Shown: one piece after another, positions 115 through 35,673 of the stretch
How the letters are laid out: the number at the start of each line of letters is the position of its first letter
Position numbering within the stretch: the first letter of the stretch is position 1
Origin: Candidatus Heimdallarchaeota archaeon
GTDB lineage: Archaea > Asgardarchaeota > Heimdallarchaeia > Hodarchaeales > Hodarchaeaceae
Assembly: GCA_048881705.1 (NCBI GenBank)
Contig: JBHLSH010000035.1
Location: forward strand, 1-36,993
Direction: 5' to 3'
DNA: 36,993 bases
Made by a program: the position numbers and the translations under genes
The notes under the pieces: model-generated
Database searches by the model: none
What the model was told of the DNA's origin: nothing
The model's input: the letters and a program-made list of their open reading frames with translations, nothing else

Positions 115-1722
115 ATGAATAACAGAGAACTAGTGATTGTGATTTTACCCACAAGTTATCTATGGCTACTTACCAGCCTTTTTCTCCTCTTATATGCCTT
201 TGATATTCTGGAAATCGTCTTTGAAACACAGACCCAGCTTGAAATTTTAAATCCTGGCATTATAGTCCTTTTCACAACTGCTTGTCTAGCTACGGCGACT
301 CTCTTTCTTTCTGGATATATTATTGACAAATCACCTCAGCTTACAAAGGCTGCTATTCTCGTTTCATTGTTTATGAGTTCTATATCGCTGTCAGGAATCG
401 CATTGGGGGCTTACTTTCCGTTTTTGCTAATTATCGCGCTTCCACTGCTCGGAATCTTTCTTGGAACCTTGGCATCGGCCTCAGGTGCTGCATTTGCAGC
501 TTATTCCGATGTAAGTTTAAGAGGGCGGATATATGCTTTCTCTATATTCTTGAGTGCAGCCGTCGCGCTTTTTATACTACTACTTAGTTCCTTTATGTCA
601 CTGTTCCCAAGCTATCCACTAGTGATGATTTCCGCTATTGGAATATTGTATTTCATTTTTGTGTTTTTAAATTCTAAGTCAATCTTTCCATGGAAAAACG
701 ACCCTTTTCCCACTTCAATTTTCAAAATTATAAATCGTAGATCTGTTCAAGCATATCTTACTGCTCAATTCTTTATATACCTCATGCTTGGAATTGTATT
801 TGTCACAATACCTCAGATTGGAAGTTATCGTCACCCGATGGTCTCTCTAGGTGGATTTTCGCTTGATCAGCGGATAGTATTCTGGGGTTTAGTTTTTTTG
901 GGTGATTTGATTACTGTGATCCCTGCAGGGATAATAGCTGATCGTGTTGGACGTAAGAATCTGATAGTGGTTGGGGCATACCTTATCGTCGTCTCAACCT
1001 TGAATCTTGGACTTAGCGAGGATATATGGATGTTTCTGTTTTCCGCTTATATTCTAGGCATCAGTTTTGGTTTAATCCATCCTGCTGCAAGTGTTTGGTG
1101 TGATTTAAGTCCACTGGATTCAATTGGACGTTATATGGCGTTAAATTATGTCAGCTTATTACAGGGAATAGGAGTTGGACTATTTCTTGGCTTGTTTGCC
1201 TTACCACGGAATAATGCCAGTACCATCAGCTATATCCTAATTGGTGTGACAGTTTTAGCGCTTCTACCATTATTTTTTGTAGCTGATTCCTACCAGCCCT
1301 TAGACATATTCCTTCTTCTTCTTAGCATCAATGGCATGGCGTGTTTCGATTATGCTTTCAAGAAGGACAAAGAAGTGACCCAGAAAGATCTGTCATTAGT
1401 TGCGGGTGCTTTATCAGCTATTAGTACCTTCTTTGAGTCGGTGGATAAACAACATGCGACTCTAGACCTTGTCAGGCATGGAAATGTGTTTGTAGTTCAA
1501 ACCAAGGCACGAACGAAAAGCGGGGAACTAGTTGGAACTTTATTCGCAAACAAAAATGATCCCGAACTTTATCGTCACCTAAAGGAGTTTGTCGGAAGTT
1601 TCTGTAAACAATACTCCGATCCTCTAATGAATTGGCAGGGGGAGTTACGTGTTTTTCGAGGAGCTTCAGAGATTGCGGAAGAAGTTTTTGGTCCTCTTCT
1701 TCCCTCCAGGACTGCAAGTTAA
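115..1722 (+). CDS. MFS transporter fused to a C-terminal longin-like domain (paralog 1)
   Basis: About 12 hydrophobic segments and MFS motif A (GIIADRVGRKN). A soluble tail of about 145 aa from ~1285 has a longin-like pattern (LLLSINGMACF...LVAGALSAISTFF...LVRHGN...F..F...Y...L..W.G....F). The ORF track starts at GTG 43, but ATG 115 (MNNRELVIVILPT) aligns with the N-terminus of the paralog at 4906 (MSSRDTIVIMIPT). Confidence 0.85.
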   Translation: MNNRELVIVILPTSYLWLLTSLFLLLYAFDILEIVFETQTQLEILNPGIIVLFTTACLATATLFLSGYIIDKSPQLTKAAILVSLFMSSISLSGIALGAYFPFLLIIALPLLGIFLGTLASASGAAFAAYSDVSLRGRIYAFSIFLSAAVALFILLLSSFMSLFPSYPLVMISAIGILYFIFVFLNSKSIFPWKNDPFPTSIFKIINRRSVQAYLTAQFFIYLMLGIVFVTIPQIGSYRHPMVSLGGFSLDQRIVFWGLVFLGDLITVIPAGIIADRVGRKNLIVVGAYLIVVSTLNLGLSEDIWMFLFSAYILGISFGLIHPAASVWCDLSPLDSIGRYMALNYVSLLQGIGVGLFLGLFALPRNNASTISYILIGVTVLALLPLFFVADSYQPLDIFLLLLSINGMACFDYAFKKDKEVTQKDLSLVAGALSAISTFFESVDKQHATLDLVRHGNVFVVQTKARTKSGELVGTLFANKNDPELYRHLKEFVGSFCKQYSDPLMNWQGELRVFRGASEIAEEVFGPLLPSRTAS

Positions 1723-1989
1723 ACTCATAAGAAAAACATTATGTGCATTTTGATTTCTCGTGAATAATGCGGACAAAATAAGAGCAGAAATCACGACATT
1801 CCGAGTTTTGAGGATGAAATCTAGTTTTATTGCTTTATCTCGATTTTTCAAAAGGATATTCTTAAAGGCCAAAAAACCCAATCCTAAACTGGATCCCGCT
1901 ATTTGGAATTAAATTTAGGTTTTCAAATCTCTTTCTTCCGATGCCATCAACACGGATTTTAAGAATATCTCTCTAAAGGTTGCTTCAAG

Positions 1990-2430
1990 ATGTCCTCCAA
2001 AGATGAAAAACCCAAAAAGGACTGGAAACAGCTCTCTCGCGATGAATGGCGTGAACTCCTTTCAAATGAACAATATTACATTCTTCGAGACAAGGGAACT
2101 GAACGTGCATTCACGGGAAAATACTGGAACCACTTTGAAGAAGGAGTATACACCTGTGCTGGATGTGGAGCTAAACTATTTGAGTCACAAGCCAAGTTTA
2201 ACTCAGATTGTGGGTGGCCCAGTTTCTCGGAACCGATGAAAGAGGAAATGATAAAAGAAAAATTAGATACCACCTTTGGTATGCGTCGTACGGAAGTCTT
2301 ATGTGATAATTGCGGAGGCCATTTAGGACACGTGTTTAACGATGGGCCCAGAGAACGAGGTGGACTCAGATACTGTATTAACTCGGCCTCATTGAAATTT
2401 GATAAGGTTCCTGACGAAAAACCAGATTAA
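1990..2430 (+). CDS. msrB: Peptide methionine-R-sulfoxide reductase MsrB
   Basis: [10 protein letters not shown], two Zn-binding CxxC (CAGC, CDNC), [16 protein letters not shown] and catalytic RYCINS. Confidence 0.97.
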
Positions 2431-2743
2431 TGCGACATTTAACCTGTTGACAGTTGCTTCGGGCAACAGCATGTTCTGATCAAGTTGTTGGATTATTGTC
2501 AAGGCTGTTCAGGGATTCCAGCTAGTATGTGATTTTAACGAAAATCATAGACCTCTTTTAATATTGGCAAAGGGAATCTCCTGCGACGGAGGAATATCCA
2601 CGTCAATCTGACGAAGTGATGCTCCTCACAAGGTTTTCCTCCAAATCTACCTTGCAGGATCATTTTCTTCGTATATCACAAGAATTTTCCGATCTAAAAG
2701 GAGAAATGCTGGTTTAGAATCGATAAGACTTAGAGGTATTAAA

Positions 2744-3514
2744 ATGGAAGAGCTATTGGATGAAAAAAAACTTGAAATGAAAATAAAAGAGATGTATCAT
2801 AAAGTTGCGTTGTTTCCCTTCGAATCGTATCACATAGAGGTTGGAAGAAAGTTAGCCGAAAAATTAGGGTATTCAACTCAAGATTTGGAAAAAATCCCGA
2901 AAGAAGCAGTTGAATCATTTGCTGGTGTTGGCAATCCCTTCGATTATGCTGACATTAAAGAAGGAGAAGTTGTTTTGGATTTAGGGAGCGGTTCGGGGAT
3001 GGATAGTTTTATTGCCGCAATGAAAGTTGGGAAATCAGGAAGGGTATATGGCGTTGATATTACAGTCACACAATTGGATAATGCAGAAAAAGTGCGAAAT
3101 CGTATTAAAATAAACAATATAGAGTTTCATGAAGCTAACATTAGTTCACTGCCTTTTGAGGACAACAGTATTGATGTTGTCATCAGTAATAATGTGATAA
3201 ACCTGTCACCTGAAAAATTGGATGTGTTTAGAGAAATTTCCAGAGTTCTCAAACCGAACGGCAGATTAGCAGTCTCAGATGTTCTTTCGGAGAAGAAACT
3301 TGGGAAAAAAGTCAAAAGTGATGCTGATCTTTGGGCAGCTTGTGTGGCAGGCGCAACAGATCAAAATGAATATCGTAAAATTATCGATCAGGTCGGTATG
3401 GAAGTTATTGACATTCATGAGAACCCACAATACCAGTTCCAGTCAGAGTCAGCGATCGCGGCCAGCAAAGAGTTTGGTGTAAAAAGCGTAACATATCTAG
3501 CTAAAAGGAAGTAA
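2744..3514 (+). CDS. SAM-dependent methyltransferase, ArsM/AS3MT-like
   Basis: Motif I VLDLGSGSGMD, VYGVD, DVVISNNVINL, RVLKPNGRLAVSD and WAACVAGA. Only one Cys in the protein. Confidence 0.8.
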   Translation: MEELLDEKKLEMKIKEMYHKVALFPFESYHIEVGRKLAEKLGYSTQDLEKIPKEAVESFAGVGNPFDYADIKEGEVVLDLGSGSGMDSFIAAMKVGKSGRVYGVDITVTQLDNAEKVRNRIKINNIEFHEANISSLPFEDNSIDVVISNNVINLSPEKLDVFREISRVLKPNGRLAVSDVLSEKKLGKKVKSDADLWAACVAGATDQNEYRKIIDQVGMEVIDIHENPQYQFQSESAIAASKEFGVKSVTYLAKRK

Positions 3515-3873
3515 AAAAACCTTATTTCAAGCTCAGAATATCACAATATGATAGTTAAATCAAGATCTAAGGCTTGAATTGCCAGTATTCTATCTCCTCT
3601 TCTTCCTTTGGAATTAAAAAGGGGGTAAATAAATTTACGAGCAACAATTTTTAATGGGGGAATTGATTGCCATAAATGCCCATTTTTCCTTGTTATAATG
3701 TCAAATAATTATCTCTTTGGATTTTGTTTTGTGGATGAACTTGGGAGATATTTCCAAGAAGATATAATACTCAGAATCTGGTATTATTTCTGCCCATACC
3801 TATCAGTATTTATATTCCGGTAAACGGTTCATGTGACACAGAGTGTAAGACTTCTTCAAAGGGCGGTTTGACC

Positions 3874-4617
3874 ATGGTCATATGCGACAGATGCGAAACT
3901 TATAACGAGAAAGGATCTGTATTTTGTTCTGCTTGCGGTTTTCAACTTTCAAGTTCAAAACAGGTTGATTTTCTGAAAGATGAGATGAAAATCAAAAAGG
4001 AACGGACTAAATCCATTAAGATTTTCCCCAAATTTAAGAGTAAGCAAGTCGTCCGTGATGAAAAAGCCCTCCCAACCGATTTTCCCTTTACTAAGTATTT
4101 GATTATCATAATTGGAGGTTTCAGTATTATAGTAGGATTTGCCTCCTTGTTTGACAGATTCCCGTCTTTACCGTCGATGCCGCGAATGCCTACAATGCCA
4201 TCGTTTCCTCCCCTTACGGGTTCAATTCTTATTCCACTTGGGTTAACTATACTCGCCTCTGTCATCGTTTTTCTAGTGGCCAAGGATTCCGCACGTGATC
4301 CTGTTATCTTTTGGATAATAGAGGTTCTTATTCTGACAATAGGATTATCCACTCTTATTCCCGAATCTAGTACCATTTTGATTCCCATTGGAATGACAAT
4401 ATCTGGACTTCTACTCGTTTTTCTCTTCTCACGTCGTTCAAACCAACCTTCGGGAGTATATGCTGGTTTATACATTGCAGTTCTCGTAGTTGGTATTGTT
4501 CTGTTGATACCAGGTTCTTCTAATCTTATTATCCCTATTGGTTTCATCCTTATCGGTTTTTCATTGTTTGCATGGGGGATCCGATTTCGCCCCGAAACGC
4601 CCTCTGGCACCTTATAA
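3874..4617 (+). CDS. Zinc-ribbon membrane protein (CxxC...CxxC plus ~6 TM helices with a 50-aa repeat)
   Basis: N-terminal CDRC...CSACG, one TM helix, a Pro-rich linker, then repeated TM hairpins. ATG 3874 is preferred to TTG 3868. Confidence 0.75.
   Translation: MVICDRCETYNEKGSVFCSACGFQLSSSKQVDFLKDEMKIKKERTKSIKIFPKFKSKQVVRDEKALPTDFPFTKYLIIIIGGFSIIVGFASLFDRFPSLPSMPRMPTMPSFPPLTGSILIPLGLTILASVIVFLVAKDSARDPVIFWIIEVLILTIGLSTLIPESSTILIPIGMTISGLLLVFLFSRRSNQPSGVYAGLYIAVLVVGIVLLIPGSSNLIIPIGFILIGFSLFAWGIRFRPETPSGTL
4162..4215 (+). repeat. Degenerate 9-nt (P-x-x) tandem repeat encoding PSL-PSM-PRM-PTM-PSF-PPL
   Basis: ccgtcttta ccgtcgatg ccgcgaatg cctacaatg ccatcgttt cctcccctt, read directly. Confidence 0.7.
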
Positions 4618-4905
4618 AGGTAAAAACGAAGGGTAGGAACCATTCCCATTAGGAAAACAAAACAAGGGTTGTAAAGATTCAAAAAAAGATAACATAAGAC
4701 ACTTCAGGCCTAATATTAGCGTTTCTAATGGAAATCGAGCCAGGCCATTTAATGACAAGAGAAAAAAGGCATCCAGTGAAGTTACGATCCTCTCATTTCG
4801 TCCCAAAAGGAACTCGAAAAAGGTTTTAGAATCGCTGGCGGAATCGAGATACCATTCTAAAATAATGGTACTCCCAAATTTTACACAAATATGGATGGAT
4901 AATCA

Positions 4906-6594
4906 GTGAGTAGTCGCGATACCATTGTCATCATGATTCCTACCATCTTTAGCTGGGTGTTAGCGTCCTTATTGCTTTTGGTATATCCCTTTGACATATT
5001 GGAATATGTTGAAACATTACCTACGAATCCTTTGGCTGGTTTAGGCTTGTTTTTACTAGGGGGGATTCTTATTCTCGCGGTTGCTGCTCTTTTTCTGACA
5101 GGCGACATATTAGATAAGCATCCTGAGTATTTAAGACGAATTACGACAATTGGGCTCATTGGATGTTCTATTTCGGTGATGTTGCTTGTACTCCTGGTTG
5201 AATACGGGTTATTCATACTAATTTCACTCGTGGGATTAGCTATCTTTTTTGGAATAACGATAACAAGCGCTGGTACTCTATTTGCAGGGCTTATCCCACT
5301 ACAAAAACGAGGAAGTATCTATTCTCTTGGAATATTTGCATTTATTTTAATTTCTTTGGCGAGTATCCTCTTGGGTGGACTTATATCATCCCGTTTTGCT
5401 AGTGGTCTTCTTACTATGTCTTGGGTAAGTATTCTCCCTCTACTTGGCCTATTGGGAATCGGATTATCAGTGATATTCTGGTTGTTTTCACAAGGTTTAG
5501 ATAAACCTTGGATAAATGACAGATGGCCTACCCATTTTCGTAAGATCTTTGGAAGAAGATCCGTTAAAGCCTATCTCCTTACACACGTTTTCATTTACCT
5601 TATGCTTGGAATTAGTATTGCTAGCTTTGCACGGATAGGGGAAATATCATTTGATACTTCATGGGTCATCACTATCCCATCTTTAGACGTATTTGAGCTT
5701 CCTAAAGACAAAGTGTTCTGGTTTGTAGTTCTCTTAGGGGATTTAACACTTGTTTTGTTTGCAGGCAGACTTTCCGACCGGATTGGCCGAAAATCCTTGG
5801 TTGTAATTGCTCTCTATGGTATTGTGTTTGCATCTTTGATATTCGGTCTCGAACGAACCCCAGGGAGTTTTTTGGCTGCCGCCTTCATAACTGGGGTTTC
5901 ATTCGCGTTACTTCACCCTACTTTAGATTCTTCTATTTGGGCAGATTTATCCCCACGAGATGGTCTTGGCAGGTATTTTGCCTTGGGATTTATTTCATTG
6001 GCAGTAGGTTTAGGCATGGGAACTGCAATCGGACATTGGATGCTCCAACCTACCCTTGATAACATAGGATTTATAACATATATTCTTACCATTTTGGCGA
6101 TTATGGGTGCTTTTCCCCTTTTTTGGGTAGCGGACAGTTTTAAACCATTAGAATTCACATTACTCATTGTTATAGAGGAGGGGGGACTTAATATTTTTGA
6201 TTATTCCTTTGGAAGAGAAATTGATGTTGAATTGACCCTTTTATCAGGCGCACTAACAGCTGTTTCAAGCTTTTTTTCTGAAACTCTAAAAGAAAAAGGG
6301 ATTTTAAATCTTGTAAGGCATGGAAATCATTTCATCCTGACCGATCGGGATGCTGAAACAAGACTCTCGGCAGCCGTGTTTAGTAACAAACAGGATCCGG
6401 AACTTCACTCTTCCCTAGGTAAATTTCTAGATAGATTTTGTAAGGACTACGGTGCAATCATAAAATCATGGAACGGAGCTCGTTCGAAATTCGAGGGAGC
6501 TGCAGAGCTTGCAGAGGAATTCTTTGGCCATCTTTCCCCATCACGTGATCTACCAAGTAAAAACACGCCCCACGACATGGTTTCCCAGTTGTAG
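4906..6594 (+). CDS. MFS transporter fused to a C-terminal longin-like domain (paralog 2)
   Basis: MFS motif A GRLSDRIGRKS. Shares blocks with paralog 1 (PW.ND..PT...KI..RRSV.AYL...FIYLMLGI; W.DLSP.D..GRY.AL). Longin-like tail from ~6133 (LIVIEEGGLNIF...LLSGALTAVSSFF...LVRHGN...FSNKQDPEL...WNG....F). GTG start. Confidence 0.87.
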   Translation: MSSRDTIVIMIPTIFSWVLASLLLLVYPFDILEYVETLPTNPLAGLGLFLLGGILILAVAALFLTGDILDKHPEYLRRITTIGLIGCSISVMLLVLLVEYGLFILISLVGLAIFFGITITSAGTLFAGLIPLQKRGSIYSLGIFAFILISLASILLGGLISSRFASGLLTMSWVSILPLLGLLGIGLSVIFWLFSQGLDKPWINDRWPTHFRKIFGRRSVKAYLLTHVFIYLMLGISIASFARIGEISFDTSWVITIPSLDVFELPKDKVFWFVVLLGDLTLVLFAGRLSDRIGRKSLVVIALYGIVFASLIFGLERTPGSFLAAAFITGVSFALLHPTLDSSIWADLSPRDGLGRYFALGFISLAVGLGMGTAIGHWMLQPTLDNIGFITYILTILAIMGAFPLFWVADSFKPLEFTLLIVIEEGGLNIFDYSFGREIDVELTLLSGALTAVSSFFSETLKEKGILNLVRHGNHFILTDRDAETRLSAAVFSNKQDPELHSSLGKFLDRFCKDYGAIIKSWNGARSKFEGAAELAEEFFGHLSPSRDLPSKNTPHDMVSQL

Positions 6595-6629: not shown

Positions 6630-7526
6630 ATGTCACAAAATATCTTCTTACGATTAAGAGGACCTAATATCATTGGATCGGCGCTCTTTGTTTTTACTGG
6701 CCTTTTGTTTGCGGCTCGAGATGTTTACTCATTTGACTGGATCAGAGCAATCTTAATCATTCTCTCAATGGTATGTTTTAATATTTATATTTGGATTTCA
6801 AATGACTTTTACGACGCCCCATATGATGCAGAAGACGAAGTGAAAGGGACTCGAAATGTGTTTTGCGAGCAACCAGATAGTCGTGAATACAAAATTGGGT
6901 TGGGTGCTATGTGGTTTTCCTTAGTGGGAGGACTCGTGATTGGAATTTTGGCTGGCTGGATCTATTTTGCCTTCACTGTGACAGGAATGGTATTGGCGTA
7001 TCTATATACAAGCCCCACCTTTCGGGCGAAAAGTAGGATTGGTTGGGACTGGTTATTTCACACTGTTTGGTTCTTGATCTCTTTTCTCCCCCTTTATCTA
7101 TTTATTCACGGATTTAATGTGATATGGGGCATTGAAGAAAGTAATATTCAGTTTTATGCCGTTTTCCTCTACATCGGTCTCGCTTCCCTTCTGGGACAAA
7201 TTAATCATCAAATTCCTGATTACAATATTGACAAAGAAACTAGGCAAATGACCACAGTTGTAATTCTCGGAGTGAAGCGTGCCAAGCAAATAAGATATAT
7301 CATTTACCTTCTGATTACTTCTAGTACAGTTATTTTGTTTCTTATAACTGGATCTTATATTGGTCTTGTTCTAATCCTAATTTATAATCTGTTTTTAGCT
7401 TTTAAGGCGAGGAGTAAGAATCCCGCGGATATTCAAAGACTAGAAGATGCCCCTTTCGTATGGATATACTTCTTTATCTTAGATTATCTGGTTCTTTCTC
7501 CGTTAATCTTGACATTTCTTCCGTAA
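6630..7526 (+). CDS. UbiA-superfamily prenyltransferase
   Basis: Multi-TM protein with Asp-rich motif NDFYDAPYD and second motif NHQIPDYNIDKETRQMTT. Starts 35 bp after MFS-longin paralog 2. Confidence 0.85.
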   Translation: MSQNIFLRLRGPNIIGSALFVFTGLLFAARDVYSFDWIRAILIILSMVCFNIYIWISNDFYDAPYDAEDEVKGTRNVFCEQPDSREYKIGLGAMWFSLVGGLVIGILAGWIYFAFTVTGMVLAYLYTSPTFRAKSRIGWDWLFHTVWFLISFLPLYLFIHGFNVIWGIEESNIQFYAVFLYIGLASLLGQINHQIPDYNIDKETRQMTTVVILGVKRAKQIRYIIYLLITSSTVILFLITGSYIGLVLILIYNLFLAFKARSKNPADIQRLEDAPFVWIYFFILDYLVLSPLILTFLP

Positions 7527-10033: not shown

Positions 10034-10177
10034 TTGCCAGCTGTCATCATCTCTACACCGTCAGAATTTAATCTAGGCAGTGTAGATCCAGACGGTAAAA
10101 CCTTCATCACTCCTGAAACGGAAGTTCTCTCTGGATTTATCAATGCCATTGATGAGTTAAGTCTGATCGATCCTTAG
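10034..10177 (+). pseudogene. Possible N-terminal fragment of a longin/roadblock-like gene, truncated at the 3' end of the DNA methyltransferase
   Basis: SD-like GGAGGT/AAGGAG upstream of TTG 10034. The peptide PAVIISTPSEFNLGSV...EVLSGFINAIDE resembles the strand-1/helix-1 pattern of the three longin domains in this window (LLSGALTAVSSF, MVPGFLNALETF). The similarity stops at 10156, next to the MTase stop codon. Confidence 0.4.
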
Positions 10178-12721
10178 ATAAACCTGGTCTATTTTCGGTA
10201 TTAAGGCAATCGTCTGTGCGATTACATCACATACGGAGAGGAAATATTCCAGTTCAGTATTTGATATAGGTCTCTGAATCGTATTCCGTTTATAATGGAG
10301 ACTAAAGCGGCGAGAATACAGCCATTGCTTTAGAACTTGACGATTTCCTATTTTGAAGTTCCACATCTCCTGGGTAATGTTTTCTATGCAGAATTTTCCA
10401 TCATACACTCTGTTATCCTTGGGCTGAAGATATATTCGTTGATTCTCTGCACTATACGAAATTTTCGTAATTTTCAGGTCCTTAGAACTACTTATGGGGA
10501 ATTCAGATTTATTAATATTGATGGAATTTAATAAATGCAAAGATATGAGTTTTTTCCCAAGATCAGACATCTCAAGAAAATCAGATTCATTTTTTGGGAA
10601 TGGAATTTTTGGAAAATCACGAATCAATAGAGACTCATAACGCTTTCGGTAGGTTTGAGAGAATAAAACTCCGTAGACGTAGTTTAACAGCATTTCAGGT
10701 TCAATATGATAGTTTAGAGACGGAAGAACGACATTGGAATTTCCTCGTATTTTTATCACAAATCCGTAAGCGGATTCTTTGGATTTCGGGGAGAGAAAGC
10801 ATTTGTGAAACGGTTTGTCCGTTATAAAAACGTGTGTAAAAGGGGGATTTAGTAGGAGTTTGGTAACTATTAACGCTGGATTAGTATCTGAAATATTGTC
10901 CATCAAACGTTTTCTATACCGATCAATTAATTTAGGCTCATGCGAAAGGTACCTTTCATCAAAACCCCTAAAACCAAAATGTTTAATGAGCTCGATACTA
11001 CGATCCCCTATCCCAAGACCCTGGATACGAACTTTATCAAAGTTTAGAGTTGAAGGTACGCGCACACCCATTGATTCTAAATCCTCTTCCCGTTTTTCGA
11101 AAAATAGTTTCAATCGTCGTCTGAGAGTTTCTTTATCGACGTCTATGACAAGTTTGTCCCTATGAGTCGCGATTCCCACGCTCTTATATCCAAATAATTG
11201 ATCTAGTGAATAGAACTTCCTGTACCTTTTTAGAGTATTCTCAATTATCTCTGTGGGCGTAAATAAATGATCTTCAGTAATGGATAATTGAGAGAATTTC
11301 GAAGCATCAAATCCCTTCGCAAGTTCCGTGAATTTTCCGATCTTTTGGGGTTGCGGAAGACTCCAATAGTGGATTTTGGCTGGAGAAAGATGAGTTTGGT
11401 TAGTGTAAACAAAGAAAAATATGCAAACACCCAATTTAATGTCAAAAGGGTTACCAGTTTCTCCTTTTCGTGGATCACCGTGAAGATTAACAATGTAAAT
11501 CTGATCAAAGACTCGTAAGAGTTCTTTTCTCATCCCGCGGAAGATCTTTCCATCCAGAAAGGTGTTATTGGTTATATATGCAACAATTCCTTTCTTTTCC
11601 TGTTGTACTATCCATTGCGCCCAACGAATGAATTTGATATAATCATCTGAAAGTGGCTGGACGTTTCGTTCGTTGATCATCTTCCTATAGTCTTTTAAAA
11701 TGGATGAGAGCCACCTAGGTCTATTCTTGGACAACCTTCGATATGGTGGGTTTCCTAATACTACTACGACATCAGATCTTGATTCAAGGGATTTGAGCTC
11801 CAATGCATTACGTAAGTACATGTTTGGTAAGTTATATGAGCCAGAGGTGATTCCCAAATCCTCAACAGCGAGCCAAAGACAGAAGTGACTAATCAAGTAG
11901 GGCGCTGGAAGTACTTCAAATGTATAAAGATTTTTTAAAAATCCTTCATTATACCACGCCGTCAGCTCTCGTATGGCTCGTTTATTTTGAGTAGAATATG
12001 AGGCAAAGAATCGATCCGTGGCAAAACGAAGTATCCCAAGTGGAAATGTCGATGTTCCACTCGCAGGATCTATTATGGTTATATCAGGGTCTATGACTCC
12101 CTTGTTTCTTCCCAAGTCAGAACGTAAGAGGCTGTCGATCCCCTGAATAATAAAATCAACTATTGTTTGGTGAGTATTGATGACCCCCTGCGTTTTCGCT
12201 GTTTCAGGGTTGTAATTCCGTAAGAAAGAACTGTAAAATACGTTTATCAGCTGGTTCTTTCGCAAATTACAGAAATGCTCAGACATTTCAACTTTATCTA
12301 TGATCTCTAGAATTGGATTGATGTTATGTTCAAGTAGCGGACTTGAAATTATGGGTACGAAATTTTTCAAGAACATCTGTTTATTATGGACTGATGAAAA
12401 ACTATATTTTGGAGAAAATCGCTTCCCGTCCGGGAATATGCCGTCCTGACAAACCATTGAAACGAAAATGCAATTTATGATTGATTCAACAAGTAACTTC
12501 GTCAAATCCCGCATATTTGCTGAAATATCATTAGGTGTAGTTGGTATCCATTTCTGGATCTTGTGAAGCCAATCTTTAACCACCAATTCTTCGTTTGTGA
12601 ATTCGTCCTTCTTCGTCAGGATCCTTAAGAATATTTGTTGAATGTTCTTCGCATGGGGTATCAAATCGCCAGATAAACCTACAAACGCTCGGTTTTCAGG
12701 ATTAAAACTCGATCTGTTCAA
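10157..12721 (-). CDS. N6-adenine DNA methyltransferase with type ISP-like C-terminal target-recognition region; no nuclease or helicase domain visible
   Basis: Motif I-like IIDPASGTSTF, motif IV VVLGNPPY, DDYIKFIRWAQW, GIVAYITNNTFLDG..FRGMR, NLHGD.RK, YVYGVLFSQTYRKRY, RDFPKIPF, WNFKIGNRQVLKQWLYSR. TTG start. Confidence 0.88.
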   Translation of the reverse strand: MNRSSFNPENRAFVGLSGDLIPHAKNIQQIFLRILTKKDEFTNEELVVKDWLHKIQKWIPTTPNDISANMRDLTKLLVESIINCIFVSMVCQDGIFPDGKRFSPKYSFSSVHNKQMFLKNFVPIISSPLLEHNINPILEIIDKVEMSEHFCNLRKNQLINVFYSSFLRNYNPETAKTQGVINTHQTIVDFIIQGIDSLLRSDLGRNKGVIDPDITIIDPASGTSTFPLGILRFATDRFFASYSTQNKRAIRELTAWYNEGFLKNLYTFEVLPAPYLISHFCLWLAVEDLGITSGSYNLPNMYLRNALELKSLESRSDVVVVLGNPPYRRLSKNRPRWLSSILKDYRKMINERNVQPLSDDYIKFIRWAQWIVQQEKKGIVAYITNNTFLDGKIFRGMRKELLRVFDQIYIVNLHGDPRKGETGNPFDIKLGVCIFFFVYTNQTHLSPAKIHYWSLPQPQKIGKFTELAKGFDASKFSQLSITEDHLFTPTEIIENTLKRYRKFYSLDQLFGYKSVGIATHRDKLVIDVDKETLRRRLKLFFEKREEDLESMGVRVPSTLNFDKVRIQGLGIGDRSIELIKHFGFRGFDERYLSHEPKLIDRYRKRLMDNISDTNPALIVTKLLLNPPFTHVFITDKPFHKCFLSPKSKESAYGFVIKIRGNSNVVLPSLNYHIEPEMLLNYVYGVLFSQTYRKRYESLLIRDFPKIPFPKNESDFLEMSDLGKKLISLHLLNSININKSEFPISSSKDLKITKISYSAENQRIYLQPKDNRVYDGKFCIENITQEMWNFKIGNRQVLKQWLYSRRFSLHYKRNTIQRPISNTELEYFLSVCDVIAQTIALIPKIDQVYLRIDQT

Positions 12722-19756: not shown

Positions 19757-20449
19757 TTACGTCTTTTCGATCCTATAGAGGCAACATTCGTCTCCGAGTC
19801 GGATACACTTATCCTTTGGAATGTTTTTTCCAAGTAATTCACTTATAATGGTCTCATGGACAGTACATACAAGAGGTTCTTTGGTTGCAATACGATAAAC
19901 CAAGCAATTTGACAGACGTAAGTTATATTCGCCGTCTTTCTCGATAAGCTGAGGATATACACCCCAATTGGCCAGGATCTCGGCTATGGCATCAAGTTTC
20001 TTTTTGAGGGGGATTGGCTTTCCAGGTTCAAGGTGGTTTTGTTGGATCGTATATTCTACTTCCTTGGCAAGGGTAATCCCCATTTTCTCTAGAAGCCGCT
20101 TTGTTTCCACCGAACCCAGTTCCCTTTTTATTTCTTTGAGCAGCCGAATACCAAAATCAGCGTAGTCTTTAGGAAATATATTCAGAGCGGATGGATTCAG
20201 GGCATAAACCATTGCTGGTCTGCCCGTTGTACCCTTCCTCTGAGTCCGAGTAACAAGTTCCTCTTTCTCTAACATTAGGAGATATTGACGTGCCGCATTT
20301 ACCGATATTCCTGCGGCTTCAGCAATGTCTTTTACGCTCGTTTGATAAGAATCATCCGGGCCAACTCTATTAACCAGAAGGAATTCAAGAATCTTGTCTC
20401 TGGAGCTTAAGTTTTCCTTTTTACCTGAAGAACTTCTTGTGTACATCAT
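19757..20449 (-). CDS. HTH transcriptional regulator (COG2345/SufR-like) with Cys-rich C-terminal sensing domain
   Basis: HTH SVKDIAEAAGISVNAARQYLLMLEKEELV, GTTGRPAMVY; C-terminal NCLVYRIA...VCTVHE...KCIRLGDECC. Confidence 0.82.
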   Translation of the reverse strand: MMYTRSSSGKKENLSSRDKILEFLLVNRVGPDDSYQTSVKDIAEAAGISVNAARQYLLMLEKEELVTRTQRKGTTGRPAMVYALNPSALNIFPKDYADFGIRLLKEIKRELGSVETKRLLEKMGITLAKEVEYTIQQNHLEPGKPIPLKKKLDAIAEILANWGVYPQLIEKDGEYNLRLSNCLVYRIATKEPLVCTVHETIISELLGKNIPKDKCIRLGDECCLYRIEKT

Positions 20450-24315: not shown

Positions 24316-24441
24316 AGCCATTAGTTAAGACTGGATTATTAGTTTTTTACTGCCTCCTTGGTTTATGAGGAAAGAGTGACAGTCAAAACACCTATGCAAG
24401 TTCGATATTTTCATCCTATATCGGTCTCTGGTGATCTTTCC

Positions 24442-25803
24442 ATGGCAGATATCTCAAACGGGGACTCTCAAGCGGATCAATCCAAAGAACTACGAGATCT
24501 ACGCGAGCGCTTATCAATTTACTCTTTGAGTGTGGGATGGGCTGCGGGAAGATCGTCCATCTTTGTCTATCTGTCGTATTTTGGCGTTGTTCTGGGGGCA
24601 TCACCTCTTGAACAGTCCATTCTAACTTCCGTACGAAATCTAGGGTCAAATATGTTCCAATCAGTTTGGGGATGGCTTGCAGACCTTAAAGGTCGAAGGC
24701 TGGTTCTGGTAATTGGTTTTACAACACTTTCTCTTTCCACATTACTTCTGCCTTTTGTTACCAATCCCTTTGAACTAGTTCTCGTGTCCCTAGTTCTTAC
24801 ATCAATTGGATTCGCTGTAATACCTGCTTGGAATGCATTTCTCGGGGATTATTCGTCTGAAAAGACACGAGCCTCCTTTGTGGGAAAAATAAATTCCTTG
24901 GGAACAATAACCAGTGTTGCATTAATCCTCTCGGTAGGAGTTCTCATGGATCTAACTCCTTTCCCGTTTCCCCGAGAAACCATTCAATATGTATCTAGTA
25001 GACCAGCTTTTGTTATTCCTTTCATCATAGGAGGTTTCTTATTTGTGGTGGGTCTAGGTACCTCTTTTTTCCTAGTTGAAAAATACGATAAACGCCTGTC
25101 AAAGGTACCATTTCCCGATGAGGTTCGTTTATCAATGAATGAATTAATCCAAAGAAATCCCCCATTCCGCCGTCTTCTCCCCATTGATGCCTTATTTAAA
25201 TTTGCTATGAGTACAGCCTGGCCTATCTTCCCTTTTGTTACATTACGGGTTGCAACTTCTTGGTTGACTGTAGCCATCCTATGGATTGTGTTTAATCTTC
25301 CTCGTGGTATTGGACAGGCTTGGGGAGGAAAGCTAGCAGATCGATTGGGTAAAAAACCTGTTTTAATTGCTTCACGAGTCGCTTACACATTGGTACCAGT
25401 TGGATTCGCAATTGGACTTCTAACTGGAGACATTTTGTTTCTCTTACTGGCGAACATACCTGGAGGAATGGCATTCGGGGCTGAGGAGACCGCAATTGCC
25501 ACTTACTCTTTGGATTGCTCCACGACCGAAACAAGAGCTCGCTATTATTCGATTCTCCTAACTTTCGAGGGAATAGCTGCATTTTCAGGCGCCATCTTCG
25601 CAGGTCTATTGATGGATATATGGCTAAAGCTTGCCGGAATTGATTATTCGAGCATAGGTTTCAATACAATATTGTTTTCTCTTCTGATATTTATAGCTAT
25701 ACTCCGATTCGCCACCGCTATTCTTCACGGCCTTATACATGCTAATCCCTTGGATTTTGAGCTGGAACAGGCAGTTCATGGAAGGGTGAAGTATAAATCG
25801 TAA
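24442..25803 (+). CDS. MFS transporter (no longin fusion)
   Basis: Motif A in both halves (GWLADLKGRR, GKLADRLGKK); ~12 TM helices. ATG 24442 is preferred to TTG 24358. Confidence 0.88.
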   Translation: MADISNGDSQADQSKELRDLRERLSIYSLSVGWAAGRSSIFVYLSYFGVVLGASPLEQSILTSVRNLGSNMFQSVWGWLADLKGRRLVLVIGFTTLSLSTLLLPFVTNPFELVLVSLVLTSIGFAVIPAWNAFLGDYSSEKTRASFVGKINSLGTITSVALILSVGVLMDLTPFPFPRETIQYVSSRPAFVIPFIIGGFLFVVGLGTSFFLVEKYDKRLSKVPFPDEVRLSMNELIQRNPPFRRLLPIDALFKFAMSTAWPIFPFVTLRVATSWLTVAILWIVFNLPRGIGQAWGGKLADRLGKKPVLIASRVAYTLVPVGFAIGLLTGDILFLLLANIPGGMAFGAEETAIATYSLDCSTTETRARYYSILLTFEGIAAFSGAIFAGLLMDIWLKLAGIDYSSIGFNTILFSLLIFIAILRFATAILHGLIHANPLDFELEQAVHGRVKYKS

Positions 25804-26094: not shown

Positions 26095-26709
26095 ATGGGT
26101 ATACTTGCCAAGATTTTTGCAAAGAGTCGAAGATCTAAGCTGACAATTGGGATCTTGGGTGCCCCAAATGCAGGAAAAACAACTCTCGCAAATCGTATAT
26201 CGTCTGAGTGTGGAGATGGAACCCCATTGGGGGAAGTGTCTCCCATACCACACGAAACGAGGAATTGTGTTGCAATGGAGCATTGCACTATTACGGATCA
26301 ACATGGTTCCTTAGATCTTACTATTGTAGACACTCCTGGTATCACTACTTCCATAGATTATAGAGAGTTCCAAACATATGGGCTCAGCAAGGATCAGAGT
26401 ATTAATCGGGCTAAAGAGGCTACTCGGGGAGTGATAAAAGCGATTCAATCTTTAGATCGGATGGATGCGGCCATTGTTGTTGTAGATTCTGCTCGTGAAC
26501 CATTCGATCAGGTCAATTGGACTGTTATAGGAAATCTTGAGGCTCGTAATATTCCCCTGATCGTCGCCGCCAATAAGACCGATCTCGCGAAATCAAATCC
26601 CAGCCTGGTCAGAGACGTTTTCCAAAGCGATATCATCCCAATTTCAGCAAAAAATGGTACTGGTATGAATGAGCTTTACACCTCGCTTTTAGGGCTCTCG
26701 CAAACGTAA
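26095..26709 (+). CDS. oapA: Archaeal Era-like small GTPase OapA/ArvA
   Basis: GAPNAGKTTLANRI, SPIPHETR, IVDTPGI..IDY.EF...G, RAKEATRGV, DPFDQVN-like REPFDQVN...GNLEAR..P..VAANKTDL. Confidence 0.9.
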   Translation: MGILAKIFAKSRRSKLTIGILGAPNAGKTTLANRISSECGDGTPLGEVSPIPHETRNCVAMEHCTITDQHGSLDLTIVDTPGITTSIDYREFQTYGLSKDQSINRAKEATRGVIKAIQSLDRMDAAIVVVDSAREPFDQVNWTVIGNLEARNIPLIVAANKTDLAKSNPSLVRDVFQSDIIPISAKNGTGMNELYTSLLGLSQT

Positions 26710-27035
26710 TGTCGTGGGATGTGTATATGGATCTTAGAATAGATTTTGTGACGATCAATACAACTAAGAAGATGGGCGTCACTGAGAAATGTGATTTTAT
26801 AATTTCAAAGCTGCAAAATGAAAGAGTTGTCGTTTTCGAAGGTGGGCTCCAACCAGAAGAAGAGGCAGAACTAATCCAAGAAGCAATGAAACAAATCAAT
26901 CACGAAGATTTCATGGGATATAGGATTTTATCCCCTGCACCTGTCAGAACTTCTGGGATTTTTTCCCGTAAAGATATCCGTATGACTGTAATTGCACCTT
27001 CAAACTATCAGAAACTTTCTGTCGCATTAGTTTAG
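26709..27035 (+). CDS. oapB: OapB/ArvB (DUF2073) family protein
   Basis: VVVFEGGLQPEEEAELIQEAMKQINHEDFMG; TAATG stop/start overlap with oapA at 26707-26711. Confidence 0.82.
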   Translation: MSWDVYMDLRIDFVTINTTKKMGVTEKCDFIISKLQNERVVVFEGGLQPEEEAELIQEAMKQINHEDFMGYRILSPAPVRTSGIFSRKDIRMTVIAPSNYQKLSVALV

Positions 27036-27053
27036 GATATCAATTGATGTGAA

Positions 27054-27398
27054 ATGTCCGGTAACGAGGATAGCTTAAAGCGCTATAAATGTGCGCAGTG
27101 TGGTCGGAGTCCCACATCTGAATGGGAAATTTTCAAGGGGTGTGAATGTGGGCATAGACTCTTCAGAATTGTACCTAGGAATAAACCGTTATTAATTCCC
27201 GGTCGGCCATATCAACTTACAAATAATCAGGGAGTGCCAGAATTTTTAACCGTAAAGGAGGAGAGGGAAGGTGTCTACGAAATTAATGTTAACCAACTCC
27301 TCCAGAATAACGAGGAAATGCAGACTCCCTTGGTCGTAGGAACAGAGGGGGTTTTTGTAATAAAGGGATTGGCACCAAAAAGAAAAAGCGAGATCTAG
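27054..27398 (+). CDS. oapC: OapC/ArvC (DUF2072) zinc-ribbon protein
   Basis: KCAQCG...IFKGCECGHRLF; third gene of the conserved oap/arv order. Confidence 0.8.
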   Translation: MSGNEDSLKRYKCAQCGRSPTSEWEIFKGCECGHRLFRIVPRNKPLLIPGRPYQLTNNQGVPEFLTVKEEREGVYEINVNQLLQNNEEMQTPLVVGTEGVFVIKGLAPKRKSEI

Positions 27399-31616: not shown

Positions 31617-32570
31617 GTGTATTTCTCCCCTGAAAGACGGATACCCGTTGTTATTGTAGGCCTAGAGGACGCAGGCAAAACGACTCTTTCTTTGCGGCTC
31701 CAAACGGGAGGTTTTAAGCATACCATGCCCACCGCGGGCCTAGATACAGAAATTCTTGAACTAGATGGAACGTTGTTTCAGCTTTTCGATCTCGGTGGAC
31801 ATGAAAGGTTTCGCCATTTATTGTGGAAGAAACACGTTCAATACTCGCAAGGGATCATCTATGTTATCGATTCAAGTGCTGAGGCATCCGAAAAGCTGGA
31901 TCCCTCGATTGAATGGTTATGGAAATGTCTGAAATGGAATTTGGAGGCACCTCTCCTAATCTTGGCCAATAAATCAGACCTAACTCACGTTCCACTTGAT
32001 TTAATTGTGTCCAAAATTCGGTTAAATCATCTACATGTTTTAAATCCCTCAAGATCATTTCAAATTTTCGAAATTTCATGTCTCACTGGCCATAATATTT
32101 CCCGTGCGGTTGAATGGTTTTTTCAAAAAATCGCTCAGATTGTCCCGAATCAACAGATTCGTATCACAGGTGTATATTTATACCTGCCGACCGGGGTTCC
32201 AATAGAAACTCTTAATTTCTCTAACCGAGAGAAAAGCGGTCTTGATATTGACATGGTTCCCGGTTTTTTAAATGCCTTGGAGACGTTCTTACAAGATGTA
32301 ATGGGAGATGAAAGGCTACATTCTATATCGACTGACCGCCACCAAATTTTGATGGTAAAACATGATTCCCTACTCTGTGCAATCGTTACTGATAAGGATT
32401 CGAGTCCTGCTGTCACAAGAATGGTTGCAGAATCTCTAATTAAACATATAGAAAACAGGTATGCGGAACAATTAGGTCGTTTTAAAAAAGAAGGAATATT
32501 CCAGTTCCCCAAAGGATTTATTCTGGATTATCTTAATCAAAACTTCGCAGAAAATATAAGGTACGGCTAA
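31617..32570 (+). CDS. Arf/Sar1-like small GTPase fused to a C-terminal longin-like domain
   Basis: G1 GLEDAGKTT, G2 PTAG, G3 FDLGGH, G4 LANKSD, G5 ISCL. From ~32151: GVYLYLPTGVPI...DMVPGFLNALETF...LCAIVTDK...LIKHIENRY. Confidence 0.88.
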   Translation: MYFSPERRIPVVIVGLEDAGKTTLSLRLQTGGFKHTMPTAGLDTEILELDGTLFQLFDLGGHERFRHLLWKKHVQYSQGIIYVIDSSAEASEKLDPSIEWLWKCLKWNLEAPLLILANKSDLTHVPLDLIVSKIRLNHLHVLNPSRSFQIFEISCLTGHNISRAVEWFFQKIAQIVPNQQIRITGVYLYLPTGVPIETLNFSNREKSGLDIDMVPGFLNALETFLQDVMGDERLHSISTDRHQILMVKHDSLLCAIVTDKDSSPAVTRMVAESLIKHIENRYAEQLGRFKKEGIFQFPKGFILDYLNQNFAENIRYG

Positions 32571-34940: not shown

Positions 34941-35483
34941 TTAAAGATCGCGTTGCGTTTGTAAACGCTGTTGAATGTGTTCAACGATTTTTCTTGCCAA
35001 TACACTGAATGCTGCCTCCACTCCAGTGCCATCGAGAGCTGATGTTTCAACATACACCGCTTTGTAACGCTCTGCTGCATCTGCACCATCGTATGGCAAA
35101 ACCTCTCTATCGGTTTTCAGGTCATACTTGTTTCCAAACAGCATCAGTGGTACCTCACCAGTTTTTTTCGTGAAATCCTTATACCACTTGTTTAATTCAT
35201 GAAAAGTAGAAACCCTAGTCAAATCAAATGTTAATATTCCTGCATGTGAATGAAGATAATATTGGGGCCGAATGGTGCGAAAAGAATCTTGACCACTTAT
35301 GTCCCACAATTGCATGGTCATCCTGTTCCCTTCACCTAAGTCTACTTTTTTGATTAAAAAGTTGGATCCAACTGTTGTTATGTAGTTATGGGAAAACGTC
35401 CGCTTGACATATCGACGTATAAGGGATGTCTTTCCTACTCCTCCCTCTCCTAGCATTACAACTTTACAGGTGTAATGAACCAT
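34941..35483 (-). CDS. Rab-like small GTPase
   Basis: KVVMLGEGGVGKTSLIRRY, YITTVG.NF, QLWDISGQDSF...RPQYY, GNKYDL, ETSAL. No C-terminal Cys prenylation motif. ATG 35483 is preferred to ATG 35552. Confidence 0.93.
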   Translation of the reverse strand: MVHYTCKVVMLGEGGVGKTSLIRRYVKRTFSHNYITTVGSNFLIKKVDLGEGNRMTMQLWDISGQDSFRTIRPQYYLHSHAGILTFDLTRVSTFHELNKWYKDFTKKTGEVPLMLFGNKYDLKTDREVLPYDGADAAERYKAVYVETSALDGTGVEAAFSVLARKIVEHIQQRLQTQRDL

Positions 35484-35673
35484 GTGGTGACACCGACCTT
35501 GCCCGTCTGCTGGTAAACACGTTTTTAAAGGGTGTATAGGCGTATTTATCATACGAAAGTAATATGAGATCTTTACATGTAGATGAAAACCGACCTACGA
35601 CCAGGACGCTACTCATTCTGTATTATTCTGCACAGGTTTAAAAAACCTAGAGTATTTCAATTGGAGGAAGCAG

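Follow-up and report, generated by a model that had tools for sequence, protein, structure and literature searches.

Longin and roadblock domains form the core of eukaryotic GTPase regulators, among them TRAPP, Mon1-Ccz1, Ragulator, and FLCN. The yeast glucose sensors Snf3 and Rgt2 belong to the major facilitator superfamily (MFS) and have signalling C-terminal tails, which are not longins. SLC38A9, which is not an MFS protein, binds Rag-Ragulator via a disordered N-terminal tail; Ragulator and Rag both employ roadblock domains, members of one superfamily with the longins. In the MFS protein YajR of Escherichia coli (3WDO), a small folded soluble domain follows the twelfth transmembrane (TM) helix; this YAM domain is ferredoxin-like, about 65 amino acids (aa) long, and not a longin. 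The expansion and shuffling of longin and roadblock domains in Asgard archaea are already known (bioRxiv 10.1101/2020.10.19.343400; PMC10933270), the architectures reported being soluble GTPase, TRAPPC3, and two-component fusions (PMC10933270; bioRxiv 10.1101/2020.10.19.343400), and the Asgard copies are hard to match to partners (PMC10933270). Here we describe two genes on contig JBHLSH010000035.1 (G000:C35) of a Hodarchaeales-type Asgard genome of about 4 Mb; the contig was analysed over its entire length of 36,993 bp, which we call the window. Both genes are predicted, from sequence matches and structural models, to encode MFS secondary transporters whose last TM helix is connected to a longin-fold domain in the cytoplasm. 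MFS transporters, longin domains, and longin/roadblock shuffling in Asgard archaea are known; an MFS-longin or other transporter-longin fusion was not found described in the literature searched, the asCOG supplementary tables lying outside that search.

Two MFS proteins with a predicted longin-fold tail

The two genes and their parts are listed below, together with a third MFS gene of the window that served as a control. A1 is an alignment of 24 tails with a mean column identity of 62%, and A2 is a broader profile of the tail domain.

115..1722, forward strand: MFS-longin paralog 1 (P0001), 535 aa from an ATG; open reading frame (ORF) call, Pfam MFS_1 at 56.1 bits
115..1278, forward strand: 12-TM MFS transporter domain of paralog 1; Pfam MFS_1, 12 TM segments by hydropathy, alignment to the modelled MFS part of paralog 2
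1288..1719, forward strand: putative cytoplasmic longin-fold tail of paralog 1; A1 profile match at 1288-1716 (E 1.6e-53), 41% identity with the tail model of paralog 2
4906..6594, forward strand: MFS-longin paralog 2 (P0002), 562 aa with a GTG start; Pfam MFS_1 at 48.7 bits, full-length AlphaFold2 model
4906..6123, forward strand: 12-TM MFS domain of paralog 2; full-length AlphaFold2 model, conserved motifs, Foldseek search of the PDB
6136..6555, forward strand: putative cytoplasmic longin-fold tail of paralog 2 (residues 411-550); AlphaFold2 tail model, VIA-align, Foldseek
24358..25803, forward strand: ordinary MFS transporter without a longin tail (control), 481 aa; Pfam MFS_1 at 2e-28, no match to A1 or A2

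An initial annotation of this DNA had described two MFS ORFs with a soluble C-terminal domain. Both ORFs were found, and they proved to be paralogs alignable over their full length (39% identity; E 3e-112) with a conserved tail of about 140 aa. The reading frame of the first is open from a GTG at position 43, and the alignment of homologues favours the ATG at 115 as its start. Both proteins exceed the gathering cut-off of Pfam MFS_1 (PF07690), which is 33.4 bits, and the last 150 or so residues of each matched no Pfam family, the best scores being noise (E 0.16 and 0.2). The junction reads FVADSYQPLD in the first ORF and WVADSFKPLE in the second and is kept in about 50 homologues. It had been read as a fusion without a linker, which is nearly right: about 10 conserved residues lie between TM12 and the first strand of the tail. 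The tail motifs listed in the annotation are present and conserved, although the first ORF has AGAL where SGAL was written. As had also been stated, the third MFS protein of the window (24358-25803) has no such tail. A third tailed paralog of 545 aa (40% identity) was found on another contig of the same genome (C47); its MFS_1 score of 32.0 bits is just under the cut-off.

The MFS-longin fusion is real and conserved. That it is an artefact of assembly or gene calling is refuted to near certainty, because the same architecture is conserved in about 50 full-length proteins of independent assemblies and in 23 genomes, and the frame is unbroken in the two window genes and the third paralog.

A full-length AlphaFold2 model of paralog 2, built from a 42-sequence alignment (A3), had a predicted local distance difference test score (pLDDT) of 89.4 and a predicted template modelling score (pTM) of 0.89. 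In this model all 12 TM helices lie ahead of residue 406, where TM12 ends, strand 1 of the longin domain starts at residue 417, and an extracellular beta-hairpin occupies residues 253-265 in the loop between TM7 and TM8. Within the connector, D410, S411, P414, and L415 vary little or not at all. The canonical motif A of the TM8-9 loop, of consensus G-x3-D-R/K-x-G-R-R/K, is retained as G287, D291, G294, R295, and K296, with K296 invariant and the others at least 90% conserved, and the copy of the motif in the TM2-3 loop is degenerate, with only G66 and D70 kept. Further conserved MFS signature residues are R135 and the D352/R356 pair. The conservation of these motifs speaks for a protein that has kept the conformational cycling of a transporter. 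When the full-length model was compared with the PDB by Foldseek, the top matches were all MFS proteins, and these were generic ones at E of about 1e-8 (LmrP, PfHT1, YajR, sialin, SV2A, and VMAT). Assignment of a substrate or an MFS subfamily was rejected, because these structural neighbours span the unrelated subfamilies of drug, sugar, anion, and amine carriers. The usual MFS topology puts the C terminus in the cytoplasm, and for this reason the tail is predicted to be cytoplasmic.

The tail of paralog 2 was also modelled by itself (residues 411-562; AlphaFold2 with A1; pLDDT, 82.4; pTM, 0.76). By DSSP, the model has strands at 7-13 and 19-23, a helix at 33-50, strands at 59-62, 65-71, and 78-83, and helices at 88-110 and 116-133, which is the longin order beta-beta-alpha-beta-beta-beta-alpha-alpha; the same elements recur in the full-length model. 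The top Foldseek matches of the tail model in the PDB were AP-2 sigma, the TRAPP subunits Bet5 and Trs23, AP-3 sigma, and Mon1-Ccz1, followed by MglB and Ykt6. VIA-align, an exhaustive structural alignment against 48,161 chains that is independent of Foldseek, placed the VAMP7 longin first (Z 13.8; 120 residues; root mean square deviation, 3.0), then CPLANE (Z 13.6), Sec22 (Z 13.1), and TRAPP (Z 12.4), with AP sigma, Mon1-Ccz1, SRX, and the Asgard longin 8YQG (Z 11.3) further down. Longin matches spanned Z 11 to 13.8 over 114 to 133 aligned residues, while roadblock matches were shorter and weaker (90 to 107 residues; Z 9 to 11.5). On these models the tail is a longin-fold domain, as the initial annotation had proposed: the predicted topology is exactly that of a longin, and longins top two independent structure searches.

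The longin assignment is also favoured by sub-threshold sequence matches, which go to Fuz_longin_1, Intu_longin_1, Sybindin, and Bet5. Among 56 members of the tail family, such Pfam matches were to Fuz_longin_1 in 11 (best E, 4.6e-4), Intu_longin_1 in 5, Robl_LC7 in 4, and Sybindin in 2. A hidden Markov model (HMM) search of PDB sequences with a broad profile returned Bet5 (E 0.09), Trs23, and a dynein roadblock, all non-significant, and a search with a narrow profile returned designed helical bundles only. Two neighbouring assignments were rejected. The tail lacks the helix ahead of strand 1 expected of a Roadblock/LC7 domain (PF03259), its first strand coming right after TM12, and it closes with two helices instead of the one C-terminal helix of a roadblock. 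Nor is it a longin of the GTPase-activating (GAP) type of FLCN, SMCR8, and NPRL2, because the tail alignment has no invariant arginine, whereas the GAP longins have a conserved arginine finger and a GP motif in the hairpin of strands 1 and 2 (PMC12290439). The corresponding hairpin of the tail reads G-G-L-P, not GP, and several orthologues have Q or K in place of the R of its LVRHG motif. In conservation the tail at least equals the membrane part (62% versus 56% mean column identity), and its conserved polar loop residues are H472-G473, N494-K495, and, after these, D497-P498-E499.

Among the described systems, Bet5/TRAPPC1 and Trs23/TRAPPC4 of TRAPP (3CUE, 2J3T, 7B6D), Mon1-Ccz1 (5LDD, 9RS7), and Fuzzy-Inturned/CPLANE (7Q3D) share the fold of the modelled tail (Z 11 to 13.6 over 120 to 130 residues) and are the source of the only recurrent sequence hints for its family. 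Those longins are soluble subunits of multiprotein guanine nucleotide exchange factors, whereas the window longins sit covalently on a 12-TM transporter and stay below the Pfam threshold. The best structural matches, the SNARE longins VAMP7, Sec22, and Ykt6 (4AFI, 2DMW, 3EGD; Z 13.1 to 13.8), precede a SNARE motif and a single anchor at the C terminus, but the window domain is C-terminal to a polytopic protein and has no SNARE motif. The GTPase-longin and GTPase-roadblock fusions and stand-alone longin and roadblock proteins of Asgard archaea (8YQG, 7F8M, 7YH1) are of the same superfamily and from the same organisms. SLC38A9-Ragulator-Rag and Snf3/Rgt2 offer a likeness of logic, namely, a transporter-fold protein with a cytoplasmic extension that recruits signalling proteins; for the window proteins such signalling is hypothesised. 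YajR, with its folded domain after TM12, ranked fourth among the matches of the full-length model.

Distribution of the fusion and of its tail domain

The full protein was matched by about 60 clusters (90% identity), about 50 of them full length and almost all from Hodarchaeales, Heimdall-type, or 'Promethearchaeota' metagenome-assembled genomes. Named homologues carry only the labels 'MFS transporter', 'MFS family permease', or 'hypothetical protein', and all full-length homologues carry the tail. Close relatives without a tail were not found: every hit under 530 aa stops before or within the usual length of the family and is labelled partial or comes from a short contig, and no search restricted to shorter proteins was made. 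In a survey of 400 Asgard species genomes, this tail type (counted at E ≤ 1e-25) was present in 23, all in the window's own order (the window's own genome, 20 of the 21 others of its genus, and both genomes of the sister family), and in none of the other 377. Each of these genomes has one to four copies of the MFS-longin gene, two of which usually lie in tandem about 1.8 kb apart. The window pair is parted by three inserted genes, and the same spacing of 4.85 kb was seen in one other genome (G070:C13). More distant MFS-longin proteins occur in other lineages of Asgard archaea. One of them, P0087, is homologous to the window proteins in its MFS part as well as its tail (26% identity); the homology of a Thor-type MFS-longin protein, P0126, is confined to the tail. 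Because P0126 has only the tail in common with the window proteins, the architecture may have more than one origin.

The tail is a member of a very large archaeal family of signalling-type domains that lacks annotation. When 1.84 billion representatives were searched exhaustively with a profile, 2,227 proteins matched at E ≤ 1e-3, 304 of them also at E ≤ 1e-10, the position of the domain in family members being mostly C-terminal. Its membrane-bound hosts are proteins of about 375 aa with 6 to 8 TM segments, proteins of about 715 to 760 aa with 12 to 14 TM segments, and other MFS proteins; the remaining hosts include KaiC-like ATPases, giant surface proteins, and stand-alone proteins of 115 to 160 aa. 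A2 matches 397 of the 400 Asgard genomes, but the family is not specific to Asgard archaea, with named matches beyond them in Methanomassiliicoccales and Thermoplasmata (Thermoplasmatota). Neighbours among the predicted structures of the ESM Atlas carry Arf/Ras, receiver, CARDB, and helix-turn-helix (HTH) domains, and under half of the members of an ESM Atlas cluster of 376 carry Arf/Ras families. At E ≤ 1e-5, the domain occurs in 38 ORFs of the window's own genome.

Two groups within the family were seen in passing. The proteins of about 715 to 760 aa (P0081, P0110, P0132, and similar), which have no Pfam domain, are the best match in most Loki-type Asgard genomes; this longin-tailed membrane protein, it appears, is uncharacterised and almost universal in Asgard archaea. 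The metagenomic proteins P0088 and P0101 consist of an Ig-like region, one TM segment, a longin-like domain, and then a KaiC/DUF835-type ATPase and, from this domain order, look like receptors with an ATPase output.

Small GTPases and other neighbouring genes

The following further features of the window bear on the surroundings of the MFS-longin pair and on its possible connection with GTPases.

31617..32570, forward strand: Arf-like GTPase (residues 4-172) fused to a C-terminal longin-like domain; Pfam Arf at 8.6e-30
6630..7526, forward strand: UbiA-family prenyltransferase; Pfam UbiA, conserved downstream neighbour of the MFS pair with the same place in L013 and L014
7969..9840, reverse strand: tetratricopeptide repeat (TPR) protein of about 620 aa; Pfam TPR_12, member of the synteny block in L013, L014, L017, and L019
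1990-4617, forward strand: MsrB (SelR), S-adenosylmethionine-dependent methyltransferase, and zinc-ribbon membrane protein, inserted between the MFS-longin paralogs, which are directly adjacent in most relatives

The C-terminal domain of the GTPase at 31617-32570 is homologous to the MFS tails (A2 match to residues 181-290, E 1.2e-11; hhalign probability of 97.3%, E 1.7e-11), and a second GTPase-domain fusion is present elsewhere in the window's own genome (G000:C34:15359-16321). These homologies indicate that the family as a whole is genuinely associated with GTPases, through fusions. A GTPase link specific to the MFS proteins is circumstantial.

In four related genomes (L013, L014, L017, and L019), the MFS pair is part of a syntenic block with Hexapep and/or UbiA genes, an aminotransferase gene, the gene for the TPR protein (about 620 aa), and BtpA. 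The upstream side of the block has, about 4 to 6 kb from the MFS pair, a divergent Ras-like GTPase gene, followed directly by a gene for a 256-aa protein whose N-terminal domain is of the same family as the MFS tails (hhalign probability of 94.5%, E 8e-8; weak Fuz_longin_1 match). The window's own genome has a Ras-like GTPase (C29:35457-36008) and, 16 bp on, a 255-aa protein (C29:34677-35441), both on the reverse strand at the end of a contig. An M42 peptidase gene lies 408 bp from the end of this contig, C29, whose gene order is the one that precedes the MFS pair in relatives; on that ground, C29 probably joins the start of the window, so that the GTPase pair would precede the MFS pair here too. 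Next to P0126, which is encoded on a Thorarchaeota SMTZ1 contig (L024), a convergent Ras-like GTPase gene lies 82 bp away and is followed by a gene for a TIR_2-Roadblock/LC7 fusion, the two genes together spanning 3533-4943 (reverse strand). At the P0044 locus, a GTPase gene is 7 kb away.

The window also contains a plain Ras-like GTPase gene at 34941-35552 (reverse strand). Between the TPR gene and BtpA, at 10157-12721 (reverse strand), it carries a gene for a Type ISP restriction-modification enzyme (Eco57I methylase plus Type_ISP_C), which is probably an insertion, as the related genomes have none there. Three consecutive genes at 26095-27398 (forward strand) encode a small GTPase of the MMR_HSR1/GTP_EFTU type, OapB, and a weak match to OapC; together they make up the archaeal origin-associated protein set, so a replication origin may be nearby. 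A winged-helix (FaeA/GntR-like) regulator fused to 'methanogen output domain 1' (MetOD1) is encoded at 19757-20449 (reverse strand), placed between two ZIP-family transporter genes and a NUDIX gene.

Possible roles of the tail

The reading that we tentatively favour, as plausible but short of probable, is that the tail is a protein-docking module that pairs with another longin or roadblock domain and so serves as a membrane-fixed platform for a small GTPase or a regulator. The idea rests on analogy with known longin and roadblock domains. Either the tail on the other tandem paralog or a soluble longin, for example the 255-aa partner of the Ras-like GTPase close by, could be the one it pairs with, and the pair would bind a small Ras/Arf-like GTPase or its regulator. 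Since the connector is short and conserved, transporter and platform could influence each other: the cycling of the transporter between inward- and outward-facing states might alter how the platform is presented, or the platform might gate the transporter. Solute transport would in this way be coupled to a GTPase-type switch. The tandem paralog pair is conserved, which is only suggestive of a tail-tail dimer.

Several observations weigh against this docking reading. The window tails match none of the Pfam longin families PF13774, PF19036, PF19031, PF04099, and PF01217, and family members do so below threshold only. A proximity test was carried out in the window's own genome, for which ORFs were built and searched with an HMM of the domain and an iterated GTPase HMM. 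It found a GTPase within 1 kb of 4 of the 38 domain genes, against a background of 4.5% (p = 0.09, no significant enrichment), and within 5 kb of 7 of 38, against 12.8% (p = 0.2). Adding the two fusions to the four adjacent genes gives 6 of 38, a grouping picked after seeing the data. Of six independent MFS-longin loci, three have a GTPase within 8 kb and three have none, there being no GTPase within 3 to 9 kb at L018 (P0061), P0111, or L025 (P0080). The GTPase synteny is confined to one genus-level group and may be plain inherited gene order, and the upstream GTPase pair is divergent and not co-transcribed with the MFS genes. Lastly, receiver and HTH domains, KaiC-like ATPases, and surface proteins are further fusion partners of the domain, which may therefore be a general adaptor. 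The annotation had suggested a transceptor tied to a small-GTPase switch: the modelled longin structure agrees with that proposal and the domain-GTPase fusions and synteny speak for it, but the non-significant enrichment, the three loci devoid of a GTPase, the lack of a GAP-type arginine, and the occurrence of the family outside Asgard archaea do not.

An unlikely, though serious, alternative makes the tail a self-contained domain for oligomerisation or autoregulation that operates without a GTPase, dimerising the transporter or plugging and releasing its cytoplasmic face, much like the YAM domain of YajR, the STAS domain of SLC26/SulP transporters, or the CBS domains of ClC proteins. The lack of significant GTPase enrichment would be expected of such a domain. 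The short conserved connector and the pTM of 0.89 suggest a fixed pose against the MFS part, YajR, itself an MFS protein that carries an additional C-terminal domain in the cytoplasm, ranks among the top full-length structural matches, and longin and roadblock domains are typically dimers (PMC10933270). The family is also found, however, on GTPases, GTPase partners, and receptors and as stand-alone proteins, which fits docking in trans better than a transporter-specific plug.

A more elaborate proposal, which we regard as rather improbable, is that the two tandem tails form a membrane-fixed longin heterodimer that, along with the soluble Mon1-like longin close by, recruits or activates the adjacent Ras/Rab-like GTPase depending on the conformational state of the transporter. 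If true, this would be an archaeal nutrient transceptor with the logic of SLC38A9-Ragulator-Rag and a possible forerunner of eukaryotic transporter-coupled GTPase signalling.

Two further roles both have little probability in our view. As a small-molecule sensor, the tail would tune transport allosterically to the level of a cytoplasmic metabolite. The longin/roadblock/profilin-like fold is related to GAF/PAS-like ligand binders, the polar loop residues H472 to E499 named above are conserved, and the fusions of the family to receiver and HTH domains are typical of sensor modules; against this, the top structural matches are all protein-binding longins, and none is a ligand binder. As a sorting or localisation signal, the tail would dock to coat-, adaptor-, or cytoskeleton-like machinery and so bring the transporter to one membrane region or protrusion. 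In eukaryotes, longin SNAREs and AP sigma/mu subunits act together with coats in this manner; SNARE longins and AP/COPI small subunits are among the top matches, and the same tail occurs on many surface receptor-like proteins. The neighbourhoods of the genes, however, yielded no coat or adaptor homologue, and the evidence for sorting machinery in these archaea is weak.

For the docking module that we tentatively favour, a longin attached directly to a transporter has both a definite place at the membrane and a ready input in the state of transport, and the nearby GTPase and its longin partner are concrete candidates for the link. If that reading is true, the coupling of a GTPase-type switch to solute transport would predate eukaryotes. 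If the link to GTPases fails, the family would still be a large unannotated cytoplasmic domain on archaeal membrane proteins.

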